The notes beneath the pieces were generated by a model. It was given only the letters and a program-made list of their open reading frames with translations, had not been told where the DNA came from and searched no databases. A stretch of 64,000 bases of DNA, from the sequence record PZ154895.1; one strand, 5' to 3'. Positions within the stretch are counted from its first letter, which is position 1, and the number at the start of each line of letters is the position of its first letter. Position numbers and translations under genes: made by a program. The stretch comes from a phage. This document shows, piece by piece, positions 2,885 to 47,189 of this stretch.

Positions 2885-3202
2885 ATGACTGATAAACCCG
2901 AAATTAATGATGAAGTGGAAAAGCTTATTTCTTCTATTGAAGAAAAGAACCGTCTTGAAGCAGAAAGAAAAGCAAATAAGTTATTGTCTAAAAATAAACG
3001 CGAACTGAACCGTCTTTATAAGCACGCTCAGATTGCAGCTGAAAACAATAATTTCGCTCAATACGAATATGCTATCAAGAAAAGTCGGGATATTCTAAAA
3101 CAGCCATATAACGATGAACTCATTAGTATTCTTTGGAAGACTACTAGATCGCAGATTGAGGATATGATTGATGCTTACACGCGTAAAATTCAAGCGTCTT
3201 AA
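2885..3202 (+). CDS. hypothetical coiled-coil protein, 105 aa
   Basis: ORF starting 1 nt after upstream stop. Confidence 0.5.
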   Translation: MTDKPEINDEVEKLISSIEEKNRLEAERKANKLLSKNKRELNRLYKHAQIAAENNNFAQYEYAIKKSRDILKQPYNDELISILWKTTRSQIEDMIDAYTRKIQAS

Positions 3203-3374
3203 AATTAATGCAGGATTTACTGAATCTTTGAATGGTCATCTTTGCGTGAAAATTTCTGAAAAAGAATACCATGATAGTTCAATTAAAGAAGTTAATCCTC
3301 CTATTGTAAGAGCAGACCCTAATATGAAAGTGTGGGTTGATTCCTATCAAGTCAAAAAATGGTGGCAGCTGTGA
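3168..3374 (+). CDS. hypothetical protein, 68 aa
   Basis: Six-frame ORF overlapping upstream ORF by 35 nt. Confidence 0.3.
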   Translation: MMLTRVKFKRLKINAGFTESLNGHLCVKISEKEYHDSSIKEVNPPIVRADPNMKVWVDSYQVKKWWQL

Positions 3375-3377
3375 AAG

Positions 3378-3551
3378 ATGAACACCCAGACTTCTGAAAT
3401 AGATTATAATAAAATTCGTTCCTCTAAAGTAGAAATGATGAGGCGCTTTAAAGAGTCTCATGATAAAGCTAAAGCAGAAGGAACTATAACACATAAACGT
3501 ATAAAATTTAGAAGCTCTAATGAGCCTCTGTATGGCGTATTATGTGGATAG
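3378..3551 (+). CDS. hypothetical basic protein, 57 aa
   Basis: ATG 3378 to TAG 3549-3551, immediately followed by terminator; not in ORF track (under 60 aa). Confidence 0.3.
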   Translation: MNTQTSEIDYNKIRSSKVEMMRRFKESHDKAKAEGTITHKRIKFRSSNEPLYGVLCG

Positions 3552-3617: not shown

Positions 3618-4820
3618 ATGAAAGTATGCATTTTTATGGCTCGAGGTCTTGAAGGTTGTGGCGTAACTAAATTTTCTCTTGAGCAACGTGATTGGTTTAT
3701 TAAAAATGGTCATGAAGTAACTTTGGTTTATGCTAAAGATAAATCATTTACTCGTAATTGCGCACATGATTATAAGTCATTTTCAATTCCGGTTTTATTG
3801 GCAAAAGAATACGATAAAACACTTAAGTTGGTAAATGATTGTGATATTCTAATTATCAATTCAGTTCCTGCTACTTCAGTAGAAGAAGACACTATTAATA
3901 ACTATAAAAAAATTATTGATAACATTAAACCTTCAGTTCGTGTTGTAGTTTATCAGCATGACCATTCTTCTCTTTCTTTGCGCCGAAATTTGGGATTAGA
4001 AGAAACTGTTCGTCGAGCTGATGTTATTTTTAGTCATTCTGATAATGGTGATTTTAATAAAGTTCTGATGAAAGAATGGTATCCGGAAACTGTTTCTCTG
4101 TTTGATGATATTGAAGAAGCACCGACCGTATATAACTTTCAGCCTCCTATGGATATTGCGAAGGTTCGATCAACTTACTGGAAAGATGTTTCTGAAATTA
4201 ACATGAATATCAACCGTTGGATTGGTCGTACTACTACATGGAAAGGCTTTTATCAGATGTTTGATTTTCACGAAAAACATCTTAAACCTGCAGGACTAAG
4301 TACTATTATGGAAGGTCTGGAACGTTCTCCAGCGTTCATTCCTATTAAAGAAAAAGGAATTCCATACGAGTATTATCGTCTTCATCAAGTAGACCAAATT
4401 AAAATTGCTCCTAATTTGCCAACGCAAATTCTCGACCGTTATGTAAATAGCGAAATGCTTGAACGCATGAGTAAATCCGGATTTGGTTATCAGCTGAGTA
4501 AATTAGATAAAAAATATCTACAACGTTCTTTAGAATATACTCATCTCGAGCTTGGTGCATGCGGAACAATTCCAGTATTTTGGAAATCTACTGGCGAAAA
4601 TTTAAAATTCCGTGTTGATAATACTCCGTTAATTTCTCATGATAGCGGTATCGTTTGGTTTGATGAAAATGACATGGAATCAACATTTGAGCGTATTAAA
4701 GAACTGTCATCTGACCGAGCTCTTTATGACCGTGAACGCGAAAAAGCTTATGAATTTTTGTATCAGCATCAAGATTCAAGCTTCTGCTTTAAAGAACAGT
4801 TTGACATTATTACAAAATAA
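3618..4820 (+). CDS. a-gt: DNA alpha-glucosyltransferase
   Basis: 400 aa; near-identical along its length to T4 alpha-gt as recalled (ends ...SSFCFKEQFDIITK). Confidence 0.95.
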   Translation: MKVCIFMARGLEGCGVTKFSLEQRDWFIKNGHEVTLVYAKDKSFTRNCAHDYKSFSIPVLLAKEYDKTLKLVNDCDILIINSVPATSVEEDTINNYKKIIDNIKPSVRVVVYQHDHSSLSLRRNLGLEETVRRADVIFSHSDNGDFNKVLMKEWYPETVSLFDDIEEAPTVYNFQPPMDIAKVRSTYWKDVSEINMNINRWIGRTTTWKGFYQMFDFHEKHLKPAGLSTIMEGLERSPAFIPIKEKGIPYEYYRLHQVDQIKIAPNLPTQILDRYVNSEMLERMSKSGFGYQLSKLDKKYLQRSLEYTHLELGACGTIPVFWKSTGENLKFRVDNTPLISHDSGIVWFDENDMESTFERIKELSSDRALYDREREKAYEFLYQHQDSSFCFKEQFDIITK

Positions 4821-42028: not shown

Positions 42029-42223
42029 ATGTTAGGTTATCAAGCACGAGTAAAAGAAGAATACGATCAATTAATGCTCAAAATTAATGCACTGAGCAAA
42101 TTTTTAGAAAGCGCAAAGTTTCTAACAGTTAGCGCAGTTGAGCAAGAACTGCTACTTTCGCAGTTTATCTCAATGAAATCTTATGCTGAATGTCTAGAGA
42201 AAAGAATTGCACAATTCAAGTAA
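42029..42223 (+). CDS. hypothetical protein, 64 aa
   Basis: ORF between two terminators. Confidence 0.45.
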   Translation: MLGYQARVKEEYDQLMLKINALSKFLESAKFLTVSAVEQELLLSQFISMKSYAECLEKRIAQFK

Positions 42224-42227
42224 AATA

Positions 42228-42246
42228 AAGGGCTTCGGCCCTTTTG
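42228..42246 (+). terminator. intrinsic terminator AAGGGC-TTCG-GCCCTT-TTG
   Basis: 6-bp stem, UUCG loop, T run. Confidence 0.8.
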
Positions 42247-42309
42247 TTTTAAGGGAAGTTATGATTTATTATATGAATATCAGTAATTCCGACGTGAAAG
42301 GAAAGTTTA

Positions 42310-42867
42310 ATGCAGAAAACAAATCCGGGTTTACAGAGACTATTTCAGATTCCGACATTTATCCTATCGAACGGTGACTTGACTAGTGAAATGAAGGTCA
42401 AAATTGCTGATACAGCAAGATACTCTTTAAAACAAAATCCTAATCAGGATAAAGCAGAAGTCATCGAAAGATGCCGTATCGCTGTGTATGCAGAGTTTTT
42501 TGTAGCAGATTGGCTGAGCGGGTATGTTAACAAAGGCCAAGAGGATGTTAATGACCCGTATACATACGCATGGGATGTATTGGCGCATCCAAGATATTGC
42601 GGGCTTCGTGTAGAAGTTAAGACACACCAAACTGACTCACGTTGGATTTCTGTAACAACCGGATGCAGCGGAGAGTATCCATATGGTTCTGGAATAAATC
42701 TAGGGCCCATTCTAAATCATCAAGTCGCTGACTGTATAATTATATTCAACACTAAAGAAATTCATCCAGGTGTCATCCAGTACACTCCGAAGTTCATCGG
42801 TGACAGAGAAGACCTTCGTAAGGTTGTAAGAAAAAGCAACTACAACGGATGGTATCTTTCCATTTAA
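42310..42867 (+). CDS. denB: DenB endonuclease IV (by size and position)
   Basis: 185 aa ORF next to rIIB, as in T4. Confidence 0.75.
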   Translation: MQKTNPGLQRLFQIPTFILSNGDLTSEMKVKIADTARYSLKQNPNQDKAEVIERCRIAVYAEFFVADWLSGYVNKGQEDVNDPYTYAWDVLAHPRYCGLRVEVKTHQTDSRWISVTTGCSGEYPYGSGINLGPILNHQVADCIIIFNTKEIHPGVIQYTPKFIGDREDLRKVVRKSNYNGWYLSI

Positions 42868-42885
42868 AAAAAATTTCACAAAACA

Positions 42886-42915
42886 GTTTACATACCACAA
42901 GGACTGTGGTACTAT
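42886..42915 (+). promoter_or_regulatory. early promoter cassette
   Basis: GTTTAC 42886-42891, 18 nt, TGGTACTATAC. Confidence 0.55.
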
Positions 42916-42942
42916 ACAACTATCAGCTACGGAGGAGTAAAA

Positions 42943-43206
42943 ATGAAATTTAAATTTTATTACGCTAAACATAAAATTACCGGTGAATTTATTGCATTTA
43001 CGACTTCAACTACAGGTGAAGGAGATATTTTTACTGCAGTATTTTTATCAAAATGGGAATCAGATCAACCTTACTTATCATCACGTGAAGATCTCCAACG
43101 ATTAGTTAATGGAGAATATAATGATTCATGGTCATATTTAGTCCATGATTGTGTTAAAAAGGCAATAAAACAAAAACACCTGGAAATCGTTGAGATTGAA
43201 CTATGA
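42943..43206 (+). CDS. hypothetical protein, 87 aa
   Basis: GGAGGAG RBS. Confidence 0.45.
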   Translation: MKFKFYYAKHKITGEFIAFTTSTTGEGDIFTAVFLSKWESDQPYLSSREDLQRLVNGEYNDSWSYLVHDCVKKAIKQKHLEIVEIEL

Positions 43207-43391
43207 GTTCACTGTGGTGGTGTTTTGTTTGGTTAATTAGTATTCCAGTAATTTGTTTAACATTTACTTTTGTGATGAGGTTATTATGAAAATTTTGAAT
43301 TCTGTACTTATTGCTTGTGCGTGGTGGGTTGTGCAAGTTTCAGCGGTAGTAGTTGGTATTCACATTTATTACGAATATTTTTAAAAAAGTT

Positions 43392-43421
43392 GTTTACAAG
43401 ACTGTTCTTCCGTGGTACTAT
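43392..43421 (+). promoter_or_regulatory. early promoter cassette
   Basis: GTTTAC 43392-43397, 18 nt, TGGTACTAT. Confidence 0.55.
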
Positions 43422-43449
43422 TACCCTATCAACTACGGAGGAACAGAAA

Positions 43450-43563
43450 ATGAAAAAGATTGTTAAAGCTATATGGAATGTAGTTATAATACTAATAGTT
43501 TTGAGTATATTCCCAATCGTTTTAATGATTGATGTATTAAACGTTTACTTTGGATTTATGTGA
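43450..43563 (+). CDS. hypothetical small membrane peptide, 37 aa
   Basis: GGAGGAA RBS; single TM helix; track ORF 43315 trimmed. Confidence 0.3.
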   Translation: MKKIVKAIWNVVIILIVLSIFPIVLMIDVLNVYFGFM

Positions 43564-43570
43564 GGAAAAT

Positions 43571-43768
43571 ATGAAGCGTAAACGCAGTGCTTTTACATTT
43601 ATTGAATGGTTTTTCGATAATATTTTTCCGGCTTTATTCATTTTCATGCTGATTTTTGCCTTAGGTTCAGTTGTAGTTGGAATCTATTTGATGACAGTAG
43701 TCGGAATTGATATTCGTCAAAATGGTTTAAAATCTGTGGTTGAAACAATTTGGAATGGTGTAAAATAA
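43571..43768 (+). CDS. hypothetical small membrane protein, 65 aa
   Basis: GAGGAAA RBS; hydrophobic core. Confidence 0.4.
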   Translation: MKRKRSAFTFIEWFFDNIFPALFIFMLIFALGSVVVGIYLMTVVGIDIRQNGLKSVVETIWNGVK

Positions 43769-43871
43769 GCATTTGGTTTTATATTCTTATGTTTTACATT
43801 GGTGCAAATTTTCCATATTGGATGGGATGGTCAACAACTGCATTTGGATTTTATACTCCTTGAGGTGAATT

Positions 43872-44087
43872 ATGAAAAGTTTTAAAGATGTAAAAGTTGG
43901 TGAAATTTTTTGTTTAGATAACGGTGATCAGTTAATTCGTATTTCACCTCTTAAGAGCACTAGCGAGAAACCGACAGTTAACGCTACTTTAGCAAATAAC
44001 AGTAATGAACGTTTCTGTATTGAAAATGATACTGAAACTTATACCGTAGAAGAGTTCTGGGAATTGAGCGTCGACTGCGACGATTAA
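43872..44087 (+). CDS. hypothetical protein, 71 aa
   Basis: ORF with GAGG RBS. Confidence 0.45.
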   Translation: MKSFKDVKVGEIFCLDNGDQLIRISPLKSTSEKPTVNATLANNSNERFCIENDTETYTVEEFWELSVDCDD

Positions 44088-44146
44088 TTTATCGGCCGTA
44101 TGTATTCATGCGGCCTTGGAGTAGAAAATAATTAGAGGAAATTAAT

Positions 44147-44605
44147 ATGAAATATATGACTGTTACTGATCTGAACAATGCAGGCGCTACTGTTATTGGT
44201 ACAATCAAGGGTGGTGAATGGTTTTTAGGAACTCCGCATAAAGATATTTTATCTAAACCTGGATTTTACTTTTTAGTAAGTAAATTAGATGGTCGTCCAT
44301 TTAGTAATCCATGTGTGTCTGCACGATTTTATGTAGGTAATCAGCGTTCTAAGCAAGGATTCAGTGCAGTTCTAAGTCATATTCGTCAACGTCGGTCTCA
44401 GCTTGCACGTACTATTGCAAATAACAATGTTCCATACACAGTATTTTATCTGCCTGCTTCTAAGATGAAACCTCTGACGACGGGATTTGGTAAAGGTCAG
44501 TTAGCTTTGGCGTTTACTCGTAATCATCATTCTGAGTATCAAACACTTGAAGAAATGAATCGTATGTTGGCTGATAACTTTAAATTCGTTTTGCAGGCAT
44601 ATTAA
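44147..44605 (+). CDS. ndd: Ndd nucleoid disruption protein (by size and position)
   Basis: 152 aa, immediately upstream of stp as in T4. Confidence 0.8.
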
Positions 44606-44685
44606 TGAGTAATTTCCACAACGAACACGTGATGCAGTTCTATCGTAACAATCTTAAAACCAAAGGCGTCTTCGGACGCCAGTGA
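44605..44685 (+). CDS. stp: Stp peptide (activator of host PrrC anticodon nuclease)
   Basis: 26 aa [26 protein letters not shown] matching T4 Stp as recalled; TAATG overlap with ndd. Confidence 0.75.
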
Positions 44686-44692
44686 GGAAAAT

Positions 44693-44851
44693 ATGAATAT
44701 CGCAAAATTATTAGGAGTTATTTCATTTATTTGTTGGATAGTAGCATGTGTTTTAACTATCTGTATTGATGCCAGCAGTGTGTTTTCGCAAGCTTTAGCT
44801 CAGGGTATGTGTGCATATTTAACATTTGTGTTGTTATCTACTAATGATTAA
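44693..44851 (+). CDS. ac: small membrane protein at the ac (acridine sensitivity) position
   Basis: 52 aa hydrophobic ORF between stp and gene 52. Confidence 0.45.
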   Translation: MNIAKLLGVISFICWIVACVLTICIDASSVFSQALAQGMCAYLTFVLLSTND

Positions 44852-44984
44852 GAAAATCTTGGGCTATTCATTAGCCCTTGCTATTTTATTGATAGCATTA
44901 TATTACGGAATAATGTTCGGATTAATTCAAGTCGTGCTTTTCATTTCCGATGTTATTATGGCACTACATTCACTAGTATGGTAA
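44844..44984 (+). CDS. hypothetical small membrane protein, 46 aa
   Basis: Hydrophobic ORF overlapping ac stop; not in track. Confidence 0.3.
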   Translation: MIKKILGYSLALAILLIALYYGIMFGLIQVVLFISDVIMALHSLVW

Positions 44985-44988
44985 ATTT

Positions 44989-46317
44989 ATGCAACTGAAT
45001 AATCGCGATTTAAAAAGTATCATTGATAATGAAGCATTGGCTTATGCTATGTACACGGTTGAAAATCGTGCTATTCCAAATATGATTGATGGATTTAAGC
45101 CAGTCCAACGATTTGTTATTGCTCGAGCTCTTGATTTGGCGCGAGGAAATAAAGATAAGTTTCACAAACTTGCTTCTATTGCAGGTGGTGTAGCGGACCT
45201 TGGATATCATCATGGTGAAAACTCTGCGCAAGACGCGGGGGCTTTGATGGCTAATACTTGGAATAATAACTTTCCTTTGTTAGATGGTCAAGGAAACTTT
45301 GGTTCTCGTACCGTTCAAAAAGCAGCGGCAAGTCGTTATATTTTTGCTCGTGTAAGTAAAAATTTCTATAGCGTATATAAAGATACTGAATATGCTCCGG
45401 TACATCAAGATAAAGAACACATTCCTCCTGCTTTCTATTTGCCTATTATTCCTACTGTTCTTCTTAATGGTGTTTCCGGTATTGCAACTGGTTATGCAAC
45501 TTACATTCTTCCTCATAGTGTTTCTTCTGTCAAGAAAGCTGTATTGCAAGCTCTTCAAGGAAAGAAAGTAACTAAACCGAAGGTAGAATTCCCAGAATTT
45601 CGCGGTGAAGTCGTTGAAATTGACGGTCAATATGAAATTCGTGGAACGTACAAGTTTACTTCACGAACTCAAATGCATATCACTGAGATTCCGTATAAGT
45701 ATGATCGTGAAACTTATGTGAGTAAAATCTTAGACCCGCTTGAAGATAAAGGCTTCATTACGTGGGATGATGCTTGCGGTGAGCATGGTTTTGGCTTTAA
45801 AGTTAAATTCCGCAAAGAATATTCTTTGAGCGATAACGAAGAAGAACGCCATGCAAAAATCATGAAAGACTTCGGGTTGATTGAGCGTCGTTCCCAAAAT
45901 ATTACAGTCATCAACGAGAAAGGAAAGTTACAAGTTTACGATAACGTAGTTGATTTAATTAAAGACTTCGTTGAAGTTCGTAAAACTTATGTCCAAAAAC
46001 GAATTGATAACAAAATCAAAGAAACTGAATCAGCATTTCGTTTAGCCTTTGCCAAGGCGCATTTCATTAAGAAAGTAATTTCAGGTGAAATTGTTGTGCA
46101 GGGTAAAACTCGTAAAGAACTGACCGAAGAACTTTCTAAAATTGAGATGTATTCTTCTTATGTTGATAAACTAGTCGGAATGAATATTTTTCATATGACT
46201 TCCGACGAAGCAAAGAAACTTGCTGAAGAAGCTAAAGCTAAGAAAGAAGAAAACGAATATTGGAAAACTACTGATGTAGTTACAGAATACACCAAAGATT
46301 TAGAGGAAATCAAATGA
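44989..46317 (+). CDS. 52: gp52 topoisomerase II medium subunit (GyrA-like)
   Basis: 442 aa; ...IDGFKPVQRFVIARA... active-site region. Confidence 0.93.
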   Translation: MQLNNRDLKSIIDNEALAYAMYTVENRAIPNMIDGFKPVQRFVIARALDLARGNKDKFHKLASIAGGVADLGYHHGENSAQDAGALMANTWNNNFPLLDGQGNFGSRTVQKAAASRYIFARVSKNFYSVYKDTEYAPVHQDKEHIPPAFYLPIIPTVLLNGVSGIATGYATYILPHSVSSVKKAVLQALQGKKVTKPKVEFPEFRGEVVEIDGQYEIRGTYKFTSRTQMHITEIPYKYDRETYVSKILDPLEDKGFITWDDACGEHGFGFKVKFRKEYSLSDNEEERHAKIMKDFGLIERRSQNITVINEKGKLQVYDNVVDLIKDFVEVRKTYVQKRIDNKIKETESAFRLAFAKAHFIKKVISGEIVVQGKTRKELTEELSKIEMYSSYVDKLVGMNIFHMTSDEAKKLAEEAKAKKEENEYWKTTDVVTEYTKDLEEIK

Positions 46318-46463
46318 GTCCATTTATAGGTATTACAAGCGCTGCATTAGTATCCGGTGGCATTTTACTGGCGGGTTTAGGTGTTGTTCCAGCTGTAGCA
46401 GGAGGTCTTCTTGCGTTCGGCATTCAACGTGTTATCATGACAGTTATCACAGTCATGCAGTAA
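46314..46463 (+). CDS. hypothetical small membrane protein, 49 aa
   Basis: ATGA overlap with gene 52; Gly/Ala-rich hydrophobic; not in track. Confidence 0.35.
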   Translation: MSPFIGITSAALVSGGILLAGLGVVPAVAGGLLAFGIQRVIMTVITVMQ

Positions 46464-46468
46464 TTTTA

Positions 46469-46490
46469 GGGAGAGCCGAGGCTCTCCCTT
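46469..46490 (+). terminator. intrinsic terminator GGGAGAGC-CGAG-GCTCTCCC
   Basis: 8-bp stem then TT. Confidence 0.6.
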
Positions 46491-46553
46491 CCAAAGCATA
46501 CTGTGGTACTATACAACTATCAACTACTGATACAGAATTACGGAGATTAGAAA

Positions 46554-47189
46554 ATGTCTAAAGTAACTTACATCATCAAAGCTTCTAACGATGTTCTGAA
46601 TGAAAAAACTGCTGCGATTTTAATTACCATTGCTAAGAAAGATTTCATTACAGCTGCAGAAGTTCGTGAGGTGCATCCAGATTTAGGTAACGCAGTAGTT
46701 AATAGTAATATTGGGGTATTGATTAAAAAAGGCCTGGTGGAGAAATCTGGTGATGGATTAATCATTACAGGTGAAGCTCAGGATATTATTTCAAATGCAG
46801 CAACTTTATACGCACAGGAAAACGCTCCTGAACTGCTGAAAAAACGAGCAACTCGTAAAGCTCGTGAGATTACTTCTGATATGGAAGAAGATAAAGACTT
46901 CATGTTAAAACTTTTAGATGAAAATGGATTTGTTCTTAAAAAGGTTGAAACTTATCGTAGTAACTATCTCGCTATTTTAGAAAAACGCACTCACGGAATT
47001 CGCAATTTTGAAATTAACAACAATGGAAATATGCGAATTTTTGGATACAAAATGATGGAACATCATATTCAGAAATTTACTGATATCGGAATGTCATGTA
47101 AAATCGCTAAAAACGGTAATGTGTATCTTGACATTAAACGCTCAGCAGAAAACATTGAAGCTGTAATCACCGTGGCATCTGAACTGTGA
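46554..47189 (+). CDS. motA: MotA middle-transcription activator
   Basis: 211 aa; MSKVTYIIKASNDVLNEKTAAILITIAKKDFITAAEVREVHPDLGNAVVNSNIGVLIKKG... matches T4 MotA. Confidence 0.95.
   Translation: MSKVTYIIKASNDVLNEKTAAILITIAKKDFITAAEVREVHPDLGNAVVNSNIGVLIKKGLVEKSGDGLIITGEAQDIISNAATLYAQENAPELLKKRATRKAREITSDMEEDKDFMLKLLDENGFVLKKVETYRSNYLAILEKRTHGIRNFEINNNGNMRIFGYKMMEHHIQKFTDIGMSCKIAKNGNVYLDIKRSAENIEAVITVASEL

Follow-up and report, generated by a model that had tools for sequence, protein, structure and literature searches.

The small hydrophobic open reading frames (micro-ORFs) clustered between denB and ndd and on both sides of gene 52 in this phage (sequence record PZ154895.1) are real, conserved genes that have already been catalogued in phage T4, and their novelty is low. 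The phage is T4-like (Tequatrovirus), and the genes occupy its D region, a non-essential segment running from rIIB to gene 52, within a window of 64,000 nucleotides, the whole stretch of DNA analyzed, which is oriented in the direction of early transcription and carries all the micro-ORFs on the + strand. Judged from sequence comparison, they are almost certainly the orthologues of T4 ndd.6, ndd.5, ndd.4, ndd.3+ndd.2a, ndd.2, ac, 52.1, and motA.1. Their products share 94–100% amino acid identity with those of T4, the gene order is unchanged, every micro-ORF has a full-length match among the PHROG families, and the matches to two Pfam families, DUF7248 and DUF7396, exceed the respective cut-offs. 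Taken as a whole, the explanation that we favor, in which known T4-type genes act through a membrane mechanism aimed at specific partners, appears probable.

The preliminary description had supposed that ORFs of this length are usually missed by annotation. This is true of many relatives: in SP21535, the closest one, only the 65-aa gene and motA.1 are annotated among the micro-ORFs, and many RefSeq records have no feature under 52.1. The T4 reference (NC_000866), however, has listed ndd.6, ndd.5, ndd.4, ndd.3/ndd.2a, ndd.2, ac, 52.1, and motA.1 for decades, and PHROG holds families for all of them and Pfam for two.

The block between denB and ndd

A predicted T4-type early (σ70) promoter at positions 42886..42915 (+ strand), consisting of GTTTACA, 17 nt, and TACTAT preceded by TG, heads orf87, ndd.6, and ndd.5. 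The first of these, orf87 (42943..43206, +; phrog_2390), encodes an 87-aa soluble product and overlaps ndd.6 through an ATGA sequence; it is missing from T4 and T2/SV76 and occurs together with ndd.6 in Tequatro-, Mosig-, Dhaka-, and Gaprivervirus loci. The ndd.6 orthologue (43203..43289, +), located just downstream of denB, encodes 28 residues with one predicted transmembrane (TM) segment, matches phrog_8851 over positions 1–28 of 28 (E = 1.6e-17), and is 100% identical to T4 Ndd.6, with a dN/dS of 0.06. Homologues are present in RB69, JS10, VR5, and PSD2001. The preliminary description had counted at least four ORFs at 43200–43870; all of them exist, and ndd.6 is a fifth that it had overlooked.

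The ndd.5 orthologue (43286..43384, +; 32 aa, one predicted TM segment) overlaps ndd.6 through ATGA at 43286–43289, has a GAGG sequence 5 nt upstream of its ATG, and matches phrog_5011 over 1–32 of 32 (E = 1.6e-25). Its product is 97% identical to that of T4, its dN/dS is 0.09, and its polymorphic sites are distributed 1/1/8 over the three codon positions. For this gene the span 43287–43385 had been reported earlier, which translates with stops, whereas the coordinates reported for the other six ORFs (ndd.4, the 65-aa gene, the ndd.2 remnant, ac, 52.1, and motA.1, as given below) were exact.

A second predicted T4-type early promoter (43392..43421, +) lies directly upstream of ndd.4. The earlier reading had placed two of the small ORFs behind an early promoter of their own. 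The 37-aa ORF, that of ndd.4, does have one, but the site at 42886–42915 precedes the soluble 87-aa ORF, to which the 28- and 32-aa ORFs are linked in turn by ATGA overlaps. The ndd.4 orthologue (43450..43563, +; one predicted TM segment, K-rich N-terminus) matches phrog_3098 over 1–37 of 37 (E = 2.9e-21), and Ndd.4 is also assigned to PF26889 in precomputed annotations. The 42-aa version starting with MEEQK that is annotated in T4 is impossible here; because the upstream ATG of T4 is ACG in this phage, the internal ATG at 43450 is likely the true start. A GGAGG Shine-Dalgarno site stands at the right distance from this internal ATG, and the comparison suggests that the annotated T4 start is set too far upstream. 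Homologues 58–61% identical occur in Dhaka- and Gaprivervirus, and a phmmer search among 1.84 billion representative proteins returned only 6 clusters, all of them short proteins of T4-like phages.

The next gene (43571..43768, +) encodes a 65-aa DUF7248 protein that corresponds to T4 ndd.3 and ndd.2a in a single frame (PF23906; score 66.3 bits, cut-off 27; model positions 4–57 of 58). It combines a KRKR N-terminus, a single long predicted TM helix, and, in its C-terminal tail, the invariant sequence NGLKSVxETxWNGxK. An AlphaFold2 model (pLDDT 80) predicts helices at residues 4–17, 19–51, and 53–64, the central one being 33 residues long. The frame is intact in 14 of the 16 Tequatrovirus loci (dN/dS 0.095), and a search of 5.8 billion sequences returned 8 clusters of homologues, every one from T4-like phages. 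Relative to this phage, one G is missing from the T4 reference near position 166,620 of NC_000866, which splits the frame into ndd.3 and ndd.2a; the split probably reflects a one-base error, and T4 "ndd.3" would then be an artefact.

The last micro-ORF of the block, a 24-aa ATG ORF (43789..43863, +) highlighted previously as one of the membrane ORFs, turned out to be a start-deleted remnant of ndd.2 that lacks a TM segment. A 12-nt deletion common to this phage and SP21535 has removed the native ATG(ATG) start, which is kept in 15 other loci. The 24-aa ORF has no Shine-Dalgarno site; a 37-aa reading from an alternative TTG start at 43750 matches phrog_4135 (E = 2.2e-23). The ndd.1 orthologue (43872..44087, +; 71 aa, soluble) closes the block before ndd.

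Genes flanking gene 52

The orthologue of ac (acridine sensitivity; 44693..44851, +) lies between stp and 52.1 and encodes 52 aa (phrog_2501, E = 3.7e-25; dN/dS 0.23). An NCBIfam search of the micro-proteins gave nothing useful, Ac alone producing a sub-threshold bacteriocin match (E = 0.03). The 52.1 orthologue (44844..44984, +; 46 aa) belongs to DUF7396 (PF24129; score 78.3 bits, cut-off 27; positions 1–46 of 46). It overlaps ac by 8 nt, is separated from gene 52 by 4 nt, and is the most widely kept micro-gene, being found in 710 phage records and in four genera. In RB69, JS10, VR5, and PSD2001 it is 72–89% identical and adjoins gene 52 every time.

On the other side, the motA.1 orthologue (46314..46463, +) overlaps the last bases of gene 52 through an ATGA sequence and encodes a hydrophobic, Gly/Ala-rich product of 49 aa (phrog_3487, E = 7e-31) that is 98% identical to T4 MotA.1, with a dN/dS of 0.16; within the comparison sample it was seen in Tequatrovirus loci only. 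It is followed by a G+C-rich hairpin, GGGAGAGCC..GGCTCTCCC (46469..46488, +), at a place where relatives (e11/2, SV76, and Lutter) carry terminator features. The local terminator scan made no call at 46469..46488 because no T-run follows the hairpin.

Promoters, translation signals, and membrane character

The early promoter motif, defined as GTTTAC-N14-18-TGGTAYWAT, was found at 8 sites in the window, always on the + strand, and at 0 in shuffled sequences. Promoter predictions in the Lutter record agree at the 42886 site, but not at 43392. Most micro-ORFs are preceded by Shine-Dalgarno sites (GGAGG/GAGG) or joined to the upstream gene by ATGA overlaps.

One TM helix had been proposed for each of the small ORFs. 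With a 19-residue Kyte-Doolittle window scoring 1.6 or more as the criterion, this was borne out for seven products, namely ndd.6 (28 aa), ndd.5 (32 aa), ndd.4 (37 aa), the 65-aa protein, ac (52 aa), 52.1 (46 aa), and motA.1 (49 aa), whose windows score 2.3–3.1. It did not hold for the 24-aa ndd.2 remnant, whose best window reaches 0.41 (1.23 in the 37-aa TTG-started version). Lys/Arg residues on the N-terminal side of ndd.5, ndd.4, the 65-aa protein, ac, and 52.1 suggest that these products would be oriented with the N-terminus in. Small ATG ORFs of the window pass the same criterion by chance in 22% of cases over six frames and in 32% on the + strand. Hydrophobicity is not unusual here; it is conservation that lifts the micro-ORFs above chance.

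Selection on the encoded peptides

The dN/dS comparison covered 16 Tequatrovirus loci taken from GenBank phage records, because a search of IMG/VR via Ndd gave 5 loci only; ndd.4 is left out of the dN/dS figures, its value not being computable. The preliminary description had made its reading depend on conservation of the reading frames, and the frames are conserved in related genomes. Those of ndd.6, ndd.4, and 52.1 are kept in other genera as well.

An account in which the peptide sequence is irrelevant would hold that translation of the frames serves only to couple or adjust the expression of downstream genes (52.1 for gene 52, the ndd.x chain for ndd), or that they are chance ORFs in a T-rich spacer. 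The tight packing of the genes, with ATGA overlaps and gaps of 4–8 nt, would fit such an account, as would the chance rate of hydrophobic ORFs given above and a mass-spectrometric study of the T4 proteome, which detected Ndd and Ndd.1 (Ndd.1 early) and no micro-protein. A literature search found no ribosome-profiling study of T4. However, the micro-ORF frames have dN/dS values of 0.06–0.23, compared with 0.04–0.075 for denB, ndd, and gp52, whereas shifted frames mostly give 0.5–5. Polymorphic sites fall mostly at the third codon position, with pooled counts of 13/7/42 for ndd.6–ndd.2 (chi-square P = 4e-8) and 29/18/58 for ac, 52.1, and motA.1 (P = 5e-6). Both measures argue for selection on the amino acids. 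Moreover, the family profiles match over their full length, and 52.1 tolerates transposons at 16 of 16 TA sites though gene 52 is essential. This account is thus largely refuted already, and we consider it extremely improbable. Chance ORFs as such were ruled out by the dN/dS and codon-position statistics; hydrophobicity alone would have been insufficient to do so. These patterns of substitution identify the micro-ORFs as protein-coding and under purifying selection.

Two further candidates were examined and rejected. All-against-all local alignments with shuffles disclosed no paralogous family, the sole relationship being that of Ac with the RB68-type Ac. As for a hidden RNA element, Rfam models searched over 42200–46700 gave one weak sub-threshold match (E = 0.57; 15 bits, cut-off 95 bits), and the RNA fold of 43425–43645 reached a z of only -2.4.

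Between genera, the motifs that survive are KAIWN...SIFPIxxMID in ndd.4, IPxIC in ndd.6, and the C-terminal tail of the 65-aa protein; such motifs would fit specific contacts better than bulk hydrophobicity. Individual genes have nevertheless been lost naturally: ndd.2 is without its native start in this phage, SP21535 has lost the start of ac, and SV76 carries stop codons. Selection on the individual micro-genes is therefore weak or conditional.

Function of the micro-genes

In T4, all the micro-genes have transcripts assigned to the early class (PMC9697503 Table S2), and the genes are dispensable singly and jointly on laboratory E. coli. Every one of them was scored "Not Fit" in the genome-wide CRISPRi-ART screen. 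The HIDEN-SEQ transposon screen found all of them non-essential and reported none as a hit under RexAB, RnlAB, CBASS, DarTG1, DarTG2, or minimal medium. The saΔ9 deletion, which takes out 52.1, ac, stp, ndd, ndd.1-6, and denB, leaves the phage viable with a 50% yield and abolishes the phage-induced stimulation of phospholipid synthesis, and the overlapping deletion rIIΔDD2 loses the stimulation of phosphatidylglycerol (PMC6071114). The lipid phenotype is mapped to multi-gene deletions, with denB, ndd, and stp in the same interval. Expression of Ac renders E. coli sensitive to acriflavine and T4Δac is resistant, an acridine-sensitivity phenotype known for T4 and PP01 only; interference of Ac with AcrAB-TolC efflux is the authors' proposal (bioRxiv 10.1101/2025.06.30.662393; repeated in PMC13250531). 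Host transporters, division, or defence systems had been put forward earlier as targets of these peptides. Some support for this comes from ac alone, through the preprint and its proposed AcrAB-TolC target; for the ndd micro-genes such targets are hypothetical. Neither of the two genome-wide screens of T4 gave a phenotype, nor did any of five challenges with defence systems.

We propose that each peptide would insert in the inner membrane within the first minutes of infection and pack helix-to-helix on a host inner-membrane protein, altering its activity. The model is the one proposed for Ac with the AcrAB-TolC pump, and at least one ndd peptide would be the factor behind the switch in lipid synthesis. 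We put forward this specific-partner mechanism for the micro-proteins tentatively. A narrower version, which we regard as rather unlikely, would make one of the ndd.6–ndd.2 peptides the long-sought T4 early factor, which would bind a lipid-synthesis enzyme of the inner membrane, or the regulator of such an enzyme, and thereby shift the phospholipid synthesis of the host towards phosphatidylglycerol. On a wider view, the block would be a battery of peptide inhibitors, each directed against a different host membrane machine, with Ac/AcrAB-TolC as the first example. The best candidates for the lipid factor are ndd.4, which has an early promoter to itself, and the 65-aa DUF7248 protein, whose tail is invariant.

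Both the lipid phenotype of saΔ9 and the uptake of acridine could also be explained without specific partners, if massed small hydrophobic helices stressed the inner membrane and the host responded by shifting its phospholipid synthesis (more phosphatidylglycerol) and permeability. Consistent with such a perturbation of the bilayer, the lipid phenotype maps to the entire block, uninfected E. coli under stress shows a higher PG:PE ratio (PMC6071114), and the micro-ORFs lack sequence similarity to one another. Unrelated hydrophobic ORFs also fill the same slots elsewhere; in JS10, VR5, and PSD2001, ORFs of 53–59 aa with two TM segments replace ac. Yet the sequences themselves are under purifying selection, with short polar or Pro/Cys motifs kept across genera, and the Gly38Arg change in Ac alone is reported to suffice for acridine resistance (bioRxiv 10.1101/2025.06.30.662393), which argues for specificity. 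We judge a general effect on the bilayer to be unlikely.

Equally unlikely, in our assessment, is that the micro-genes are conditional weapons for natural hosts, that is, inhibitors of membrane defence or abortive infection, or superinfection-exclusion or competition factors. They would then be useless on E. coli K-12 or B, which would explain why they have no laboratory phenotype. The mechanism involved overlaps that of the favored explanation, and the target differs. In agreement with this role, the genes belong to a hyperplastic early region whose neighbors have known roles in conflict with the host, namely rIIB, denB, ndd, and stp (the PrrC activator), with arn further on, they are dispensable in all laboratory screens, and they are rapidly gained, lost, or replaced between genera, as is typical of the variable periphery of T4-type phages (PMC2839356, PMC4122927). 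On the other hand, none was conditionally essential against RexAB, RnlAB, CBASS, DarTG1, or DarTG2, nor did any show homology to a known anti-defence protein.

As a discovery the micro-genes carry small weight, as T4 annotation has included them from the time of the genome project, and their families exist in PHROG and Pfam. The region poses two questions: which gene lies behind the T4-induced rise in phosphatidylglycerol synthesis, and which partners the phage-encoded membrane micro-proteins bind. The comparison also supplies corrections to annotation, namely the single 65-aa frame, the probable start of ndd.4 at its internal ATG, and the ndd.6 homologues that lack annotation in RB69 and many other records.

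Comparison with known systems

Small bacterial inner-membrane regulators bind larger membrane complexes, as AcrZ does on AcrB. The phage micro-proteins resemble such regulators in size (about 30–65 aa), in their single TM helix, and in the proposed packing of this helix onto a transporter. The likeness is one of analogy only; the phage proteins have no sequence relationship to the AcrZ-like regulators, differ in their phage origin, and have partners that are putative. The best pair, 52.1 aligned with AcrZ, had a z of 3.6, with 3 of 300 shuffles scoring equal or better, which is not significant over 55 comparisons.

The closest counterparts are those of T4 itself. Its early (σ70) promoters combine a GTTTAC -35 element with an extended -10 element, TGGTAYWAT, and the predicted sites at 42886–42915 and 43392–43421 match them with the right spacing and on the early strand. 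T4 ndd.6–ndd.2 (NC_000866, T4p270–T4p275), annotated there as "hypothetical predicted membrane/periplasmic proteins", share with the present genes their order between denB and ndd and the placement of the early promoters. T4 differs in lacking the 87-aa ORF that precedes ndd.6 and in having an intact ATG start for Ndd.2 that overlaps the stop of the upstream gene. T4 Ac (51 aa) is 96% identical and shares both the position after stp and the overlap with 52.1, whereas the present Ac carries a one-codon Thr insertion near its C-terminus, as in PP01, an insertion reported to leave acriflavine sensitivity unchanged (bioRxiv 10.1101/2025.06.30.662393). A second type of Ac (RB68/RB69), roughly 40% identical and found in tandem in some relatives, is absent from this phage. 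For T4 gp52.1 and MotA.1, the full-length family matches and the flanking of gene 52 are alike, with nothing notable different.

Gene order and conservation of the micro-genes

The window phage is T4-like and belongs to the genus Tequatrovirus; the 4.3-kb segment that holds the finding has matches covering 80% or more of it in 479 phage records, and the top match is Shigella phage SP21535 (97.7%). Gene order was set against the annotated T4 reference and complemented with translations. On the + strand, the direction of T4 early transcription, denB (42310-42867) is followed by an 87-aa ORF that T4 lacks (42943-43206), ndd.6 (43203-43289, 28 aa), ndd.5 (43286-43384, 32 aa), ndd.4 (43450-43563, 37 aa), a 65-aa gene equivalent to T4 ndd.3 plus ndd.2a in a single frame (43571-43768), the C-terminal part of ndd.2 (43789-43863), ndd.1 (43872-44087), ndd (44147-44605), stp (44605-44685), ac (44693-44851), 52.1 (44844-44984), gene 52 (44989-46317), motA.1 (46314-46463), and motA (from 46554). 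The ORF coordinates of the preliminary description agree with this arrangement except for 43287-43385, which meets stops on translation (the real frame is 43286-43384), and its list of micro-ORFs overlooked ndd.6, though this gene lies inside the flagged interval. The 87-aa ORF, encoding a soluble protein (phrog_2390), and ndd.6 are joined by an ATGA overlap and form a pair kept in four genera (window 42943-43289; RB69 locus L020, 1836-2182). The 87-aa gene has been lost from T4 and T2/SV76, and the 28-aa ndd.6 homologue of RB69 lacks annotation.

The finding is already known because every part of it is the orthologue of an annotated T4 gene, and on this sequence comparison the micro-genes of the window are known genes. 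The suggestion that such ORFs had been missed by annotation does not apply to T4 and holds for many relatives: only two of the eight micro-genes are annotated in SP21535, and many records are blank under 52.1.

Hydrophobicity is weak evidence for coding in this 35% G+C genome, where 22% (six frames) to 32% (+ strand) of the small ATG ORFs of the window pass a test requiring a mean Kyte-Doolittle value of at least 1.6 over 19 residues. The decisive evidence beyond chance is conservation. In a sample of 16 Tequatrovirus loci plus four from Mosigvirus, Dhakavirus, and Gaprivervirus, the Tequatrovirus loci keep all micro-gene frames, isolated lesions excepted. Pooled Nei-Gojobori dN/dS was 0.06 for ndd.6, 0.09 for ndd.5, 0.095 for the 65-aa gene, 0.07 for the C-terminal part of ndd.2, 0.23 for ac, 0.155 for 52.1, and 0.156 for motA.1, with controls at 0.04 (denB), 0.075 (ndd), 0.045 (gp52), and 0.12 (stp); shifted frames of the same alignments gave mostly 0.5 to 5. 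No value could be computed for ndd.4, since it showed zero synonymous differences in the sample. Polymorphic sites were in excess at third codon positions both from ndd.6 to ndd.2 (13/7/42 by codon position, P = 4e-8) and in ac, 52.1, and motA.1 combined (29/18/58, P = 5e-6).

Counterparts in RB69, JS10, VR5, and PSD2001 share 40-54% identity with ndd.6 and 72-89% with 52.1, which abuts gene 52 every time, and those of ndd.4 in JS10, VR5, and PSD2001 share 58-61%. All micro-gene products match PHROG families over their full length, and those of the 65-aa gene and 52.1 are assigned to Pfam DUF7248 (66 bits) and DUF7396 (78 bits), respectively, against a cut-off of 27. No relatives were found outside T4-like phages: DUF7248 yielded 8 clusters among 5.8 billion sequences, and ndd.4 yielded 6 among 1.84 billion representatives, restricted to T4-like phages. 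Comparison of the micro-proteins with one another revealed no relationship. The flagged frames are almost certainly genuine T4-type genes.

Promoters, ribosome sites and expression

The analysis shows the micro-genes to be genuine, to encode small hydrophobic proteins, and to lie 3' of early promoters. Eight copies of the T4 early-promoter motif GTTTAC-N14-18-TGGTAYWAT are present in the window, on the + strand only, and 100 shuffles produced none. One copy (43392-43421) lies immediately 5' of ndd.4 and another (42886-42915) 5' of the 87-aa ORF, from which ndd.6 and ndd.5 follow via ATGA overlaps. A near-identical promoter-plus-leader cassette (TGGTACTATACAACTATCAACTAC...GGAG) is common to the early promoters at 42886-42940, 43392-43449, and 46495-46553; repeats of this type have been proposed to mediate shuffling of T4-type small early genes. 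Shine-Dalgarno sequences (GGAGG or GAGG) stand at normal spacing before ndd.4, the 65-aa gene, ac, and motA.1, and ndd.5 has GAGG 5 nt 5' of its ATG; ndd.6, 52.1, and motA.1 each begin within the gene before them. No such site precedes the ATG at 43789.

T4 transcripts from this whole set of genes fall into the early class, and mass spectrometry detected Ndd and Ndd.1 and not the micro-proteins (PMC9697503 Table S2), which is unsurprising for hydrophobic peptides of 28-65 residues. A literature search found no ribosome-profiling data for T4.

Predicted membrane anatomy and proposed function

Seven of the predicted products contain a single clear hydrophobic span scoring 2.3-3.1 over 19 residues. 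In ndd.5, ndd.4, the 65-aa protein, ac, and 52.1, Lys or Arg precedes this span, which by the positive-inside rule suggests an N-in orientation. The model of the 65-aa protein (mean pLDDT 80) comprises helices 4-17, 19-51, and 53-64, and its best-conserved part, the C-terminal tail NGLKSVxETxWNGxK, is unchanged in a 55%-identical homologue. The highest hydropathy window of the 24-aa ORF (43789-43863) is 0.41. This ORF exists because a 12-nt deletion (window 43762-43790), common only to the window and SP21535, took the native ATG(ATG) start of ndd.2, kept in 15 other loci; the remaining frame is intact, and ndd.2 is probably crippled in the window phage.

Expressed Ac makes E. coli acriflavine-sensitive and T4Δac is resistant, and Ac has been proposed to insert into the membrane and hinder AcrAB-TolC (2025 preprint, bioRxiv 10.1101/2025.06.30.662393), a mechanism restated as assumed in a 2026 PNAS paper (PMC13250531). 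The micro-proteins would enter the inner membrane minutes into infection, where each may modulate one host membrane protein via helix packing, as proposed for Ac; we put this specific-partner mechanism forward tentatively. Kutter and colleagues reported that T4 saΔ9, deleted for 52.1, ac, stp, ndd, ndd.1 to ndd.6, and denB, yields 50% of wild type and no longer induces the stimulation of phospholipid synthesis, and that the partly overlapping rIIΔDD2 loses the specific phosphatidylglycerol rise; they described the ndd.1 to ndd.6 products as unknown, several being thought membrane proteins (PMC6071114). One or more ndd peptides could account for the lipid phenotype. A non-specific effect on the bilayer might also accommodate it, and appears unlikely beside the conserved sequences of the individual proteins.

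Two genome-wide T4 screens on E. coli K-12 assign these genes no fitness role. In CRISPRi-ART, motA.1, 52.1, ac, stp, ndd, and ndd.1 to ndd.6 received 'Not Fit' scores, and HIDEN-SEQ disrupted nearly all TA sites per gene (52.1, 16/16; ndd.4, 18/18; motA.1, 11/11), classing them as non-essential. That the peptides are irrelevant by-products is a reading nearly excluded by the purifying dN/dS values. Dispensability on laboratory hosts would fit an anti-defence or exclusion role played only in natural hosts, which overlaps the specific-partner mechanism and is improbable as a separate account; none of these genes was among the reported HIDEN-SEQ hits under RexAB, RnlAB, CBASS, DarTG1, DarTG2, or minimal medium.

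The 65-aa gene and ndd.4

In codon 2 of the 65-aa DUF7248 gene, the T4 reference (L001, NC_000866) is one G short, reading ATGAA-CGT versus ATGAAGCGT in the window (43571-43580). This G is present in the window, in 14 other Tequatroviruses, and in an independent T4 assembly (L021, OZ035787.1) otherwise identical over ~1475 nt; therefore, the ndd.3/ndd.2a split probably arose from an error or from mutation of a stock. T4 'ndd.3' stands alone as a PHROG singleton and probably represents an artefact; 'ndd.2a' is probably a truncated model of the gene, one that RB68 and other records repeat. T4's upstream ATG of ndd.4 reads ACG in the window phage, which suggests that the gene really begins at the internal ATG.

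The stretch 43450-43640, covering ndd.4 and the 5' third of the 65-aa gene, has unusually low nucleotide diversity, with 0 of 37 third codon positions polymorphic in 17 sequences versus ~30% in adjacent genes; the ndd.4 segment is at least 99% identical in 232 of 495 records, versus 39 for an ndd.1 control segment. A sweep, RNA-level constraint, and linkage are candidate causes; the RNA fold (43425-43645) reached only z = -2.4, and Rfam gave no match. In Shigella phage Sf25, a natural deletion has produced a chimera of two adjacent micro-genes: gp120 (P0007) fuses approximately the first 30 residues of ndd.4 in frame to the C-terminal half (~30 residues) of the 65-aa protein.

Variation at the ac slot

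The window ac is intact and of the T4 type only. Two Ac types, ~40% identical and both carrying FxCW...SVFxQ..AQG, were distinguished: the T4 type and the RB68/RB69 type (RB68 L008, 3643-3798; RB69 L020, 3126-3272). They occur in tandem in PST (L009, 3869-4190) and vB_Eco_EL (L014, 3874-4195). A separate 12-nt deletion in SP21535 (L002, 2870-2900, versus window 44680-44710) removed the ac start codon, so that this phage is a natural ac-null for which acridine resistance is predicted. SV76 (L019, T2-like) has in-frame stops in the 65-aa gene (3194-3388) and ac (4339-4491), thus providing further evidence of single-member loss in some lineages or laboratory stocks. Between stp and 52.1, JS10 (L011, 3978-4139, unannotated), VR5 (L013, 3771-4122), and PSD2001 (L012, 4378-4542) carry, in place of ac, unrelated ORFs 53-59 aa long that contain two hydrophobic segments. 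The region behaves as the variable early regions of T4-type phages do (PMC2839356, PMC4122927), its slots being kept while their contents change.
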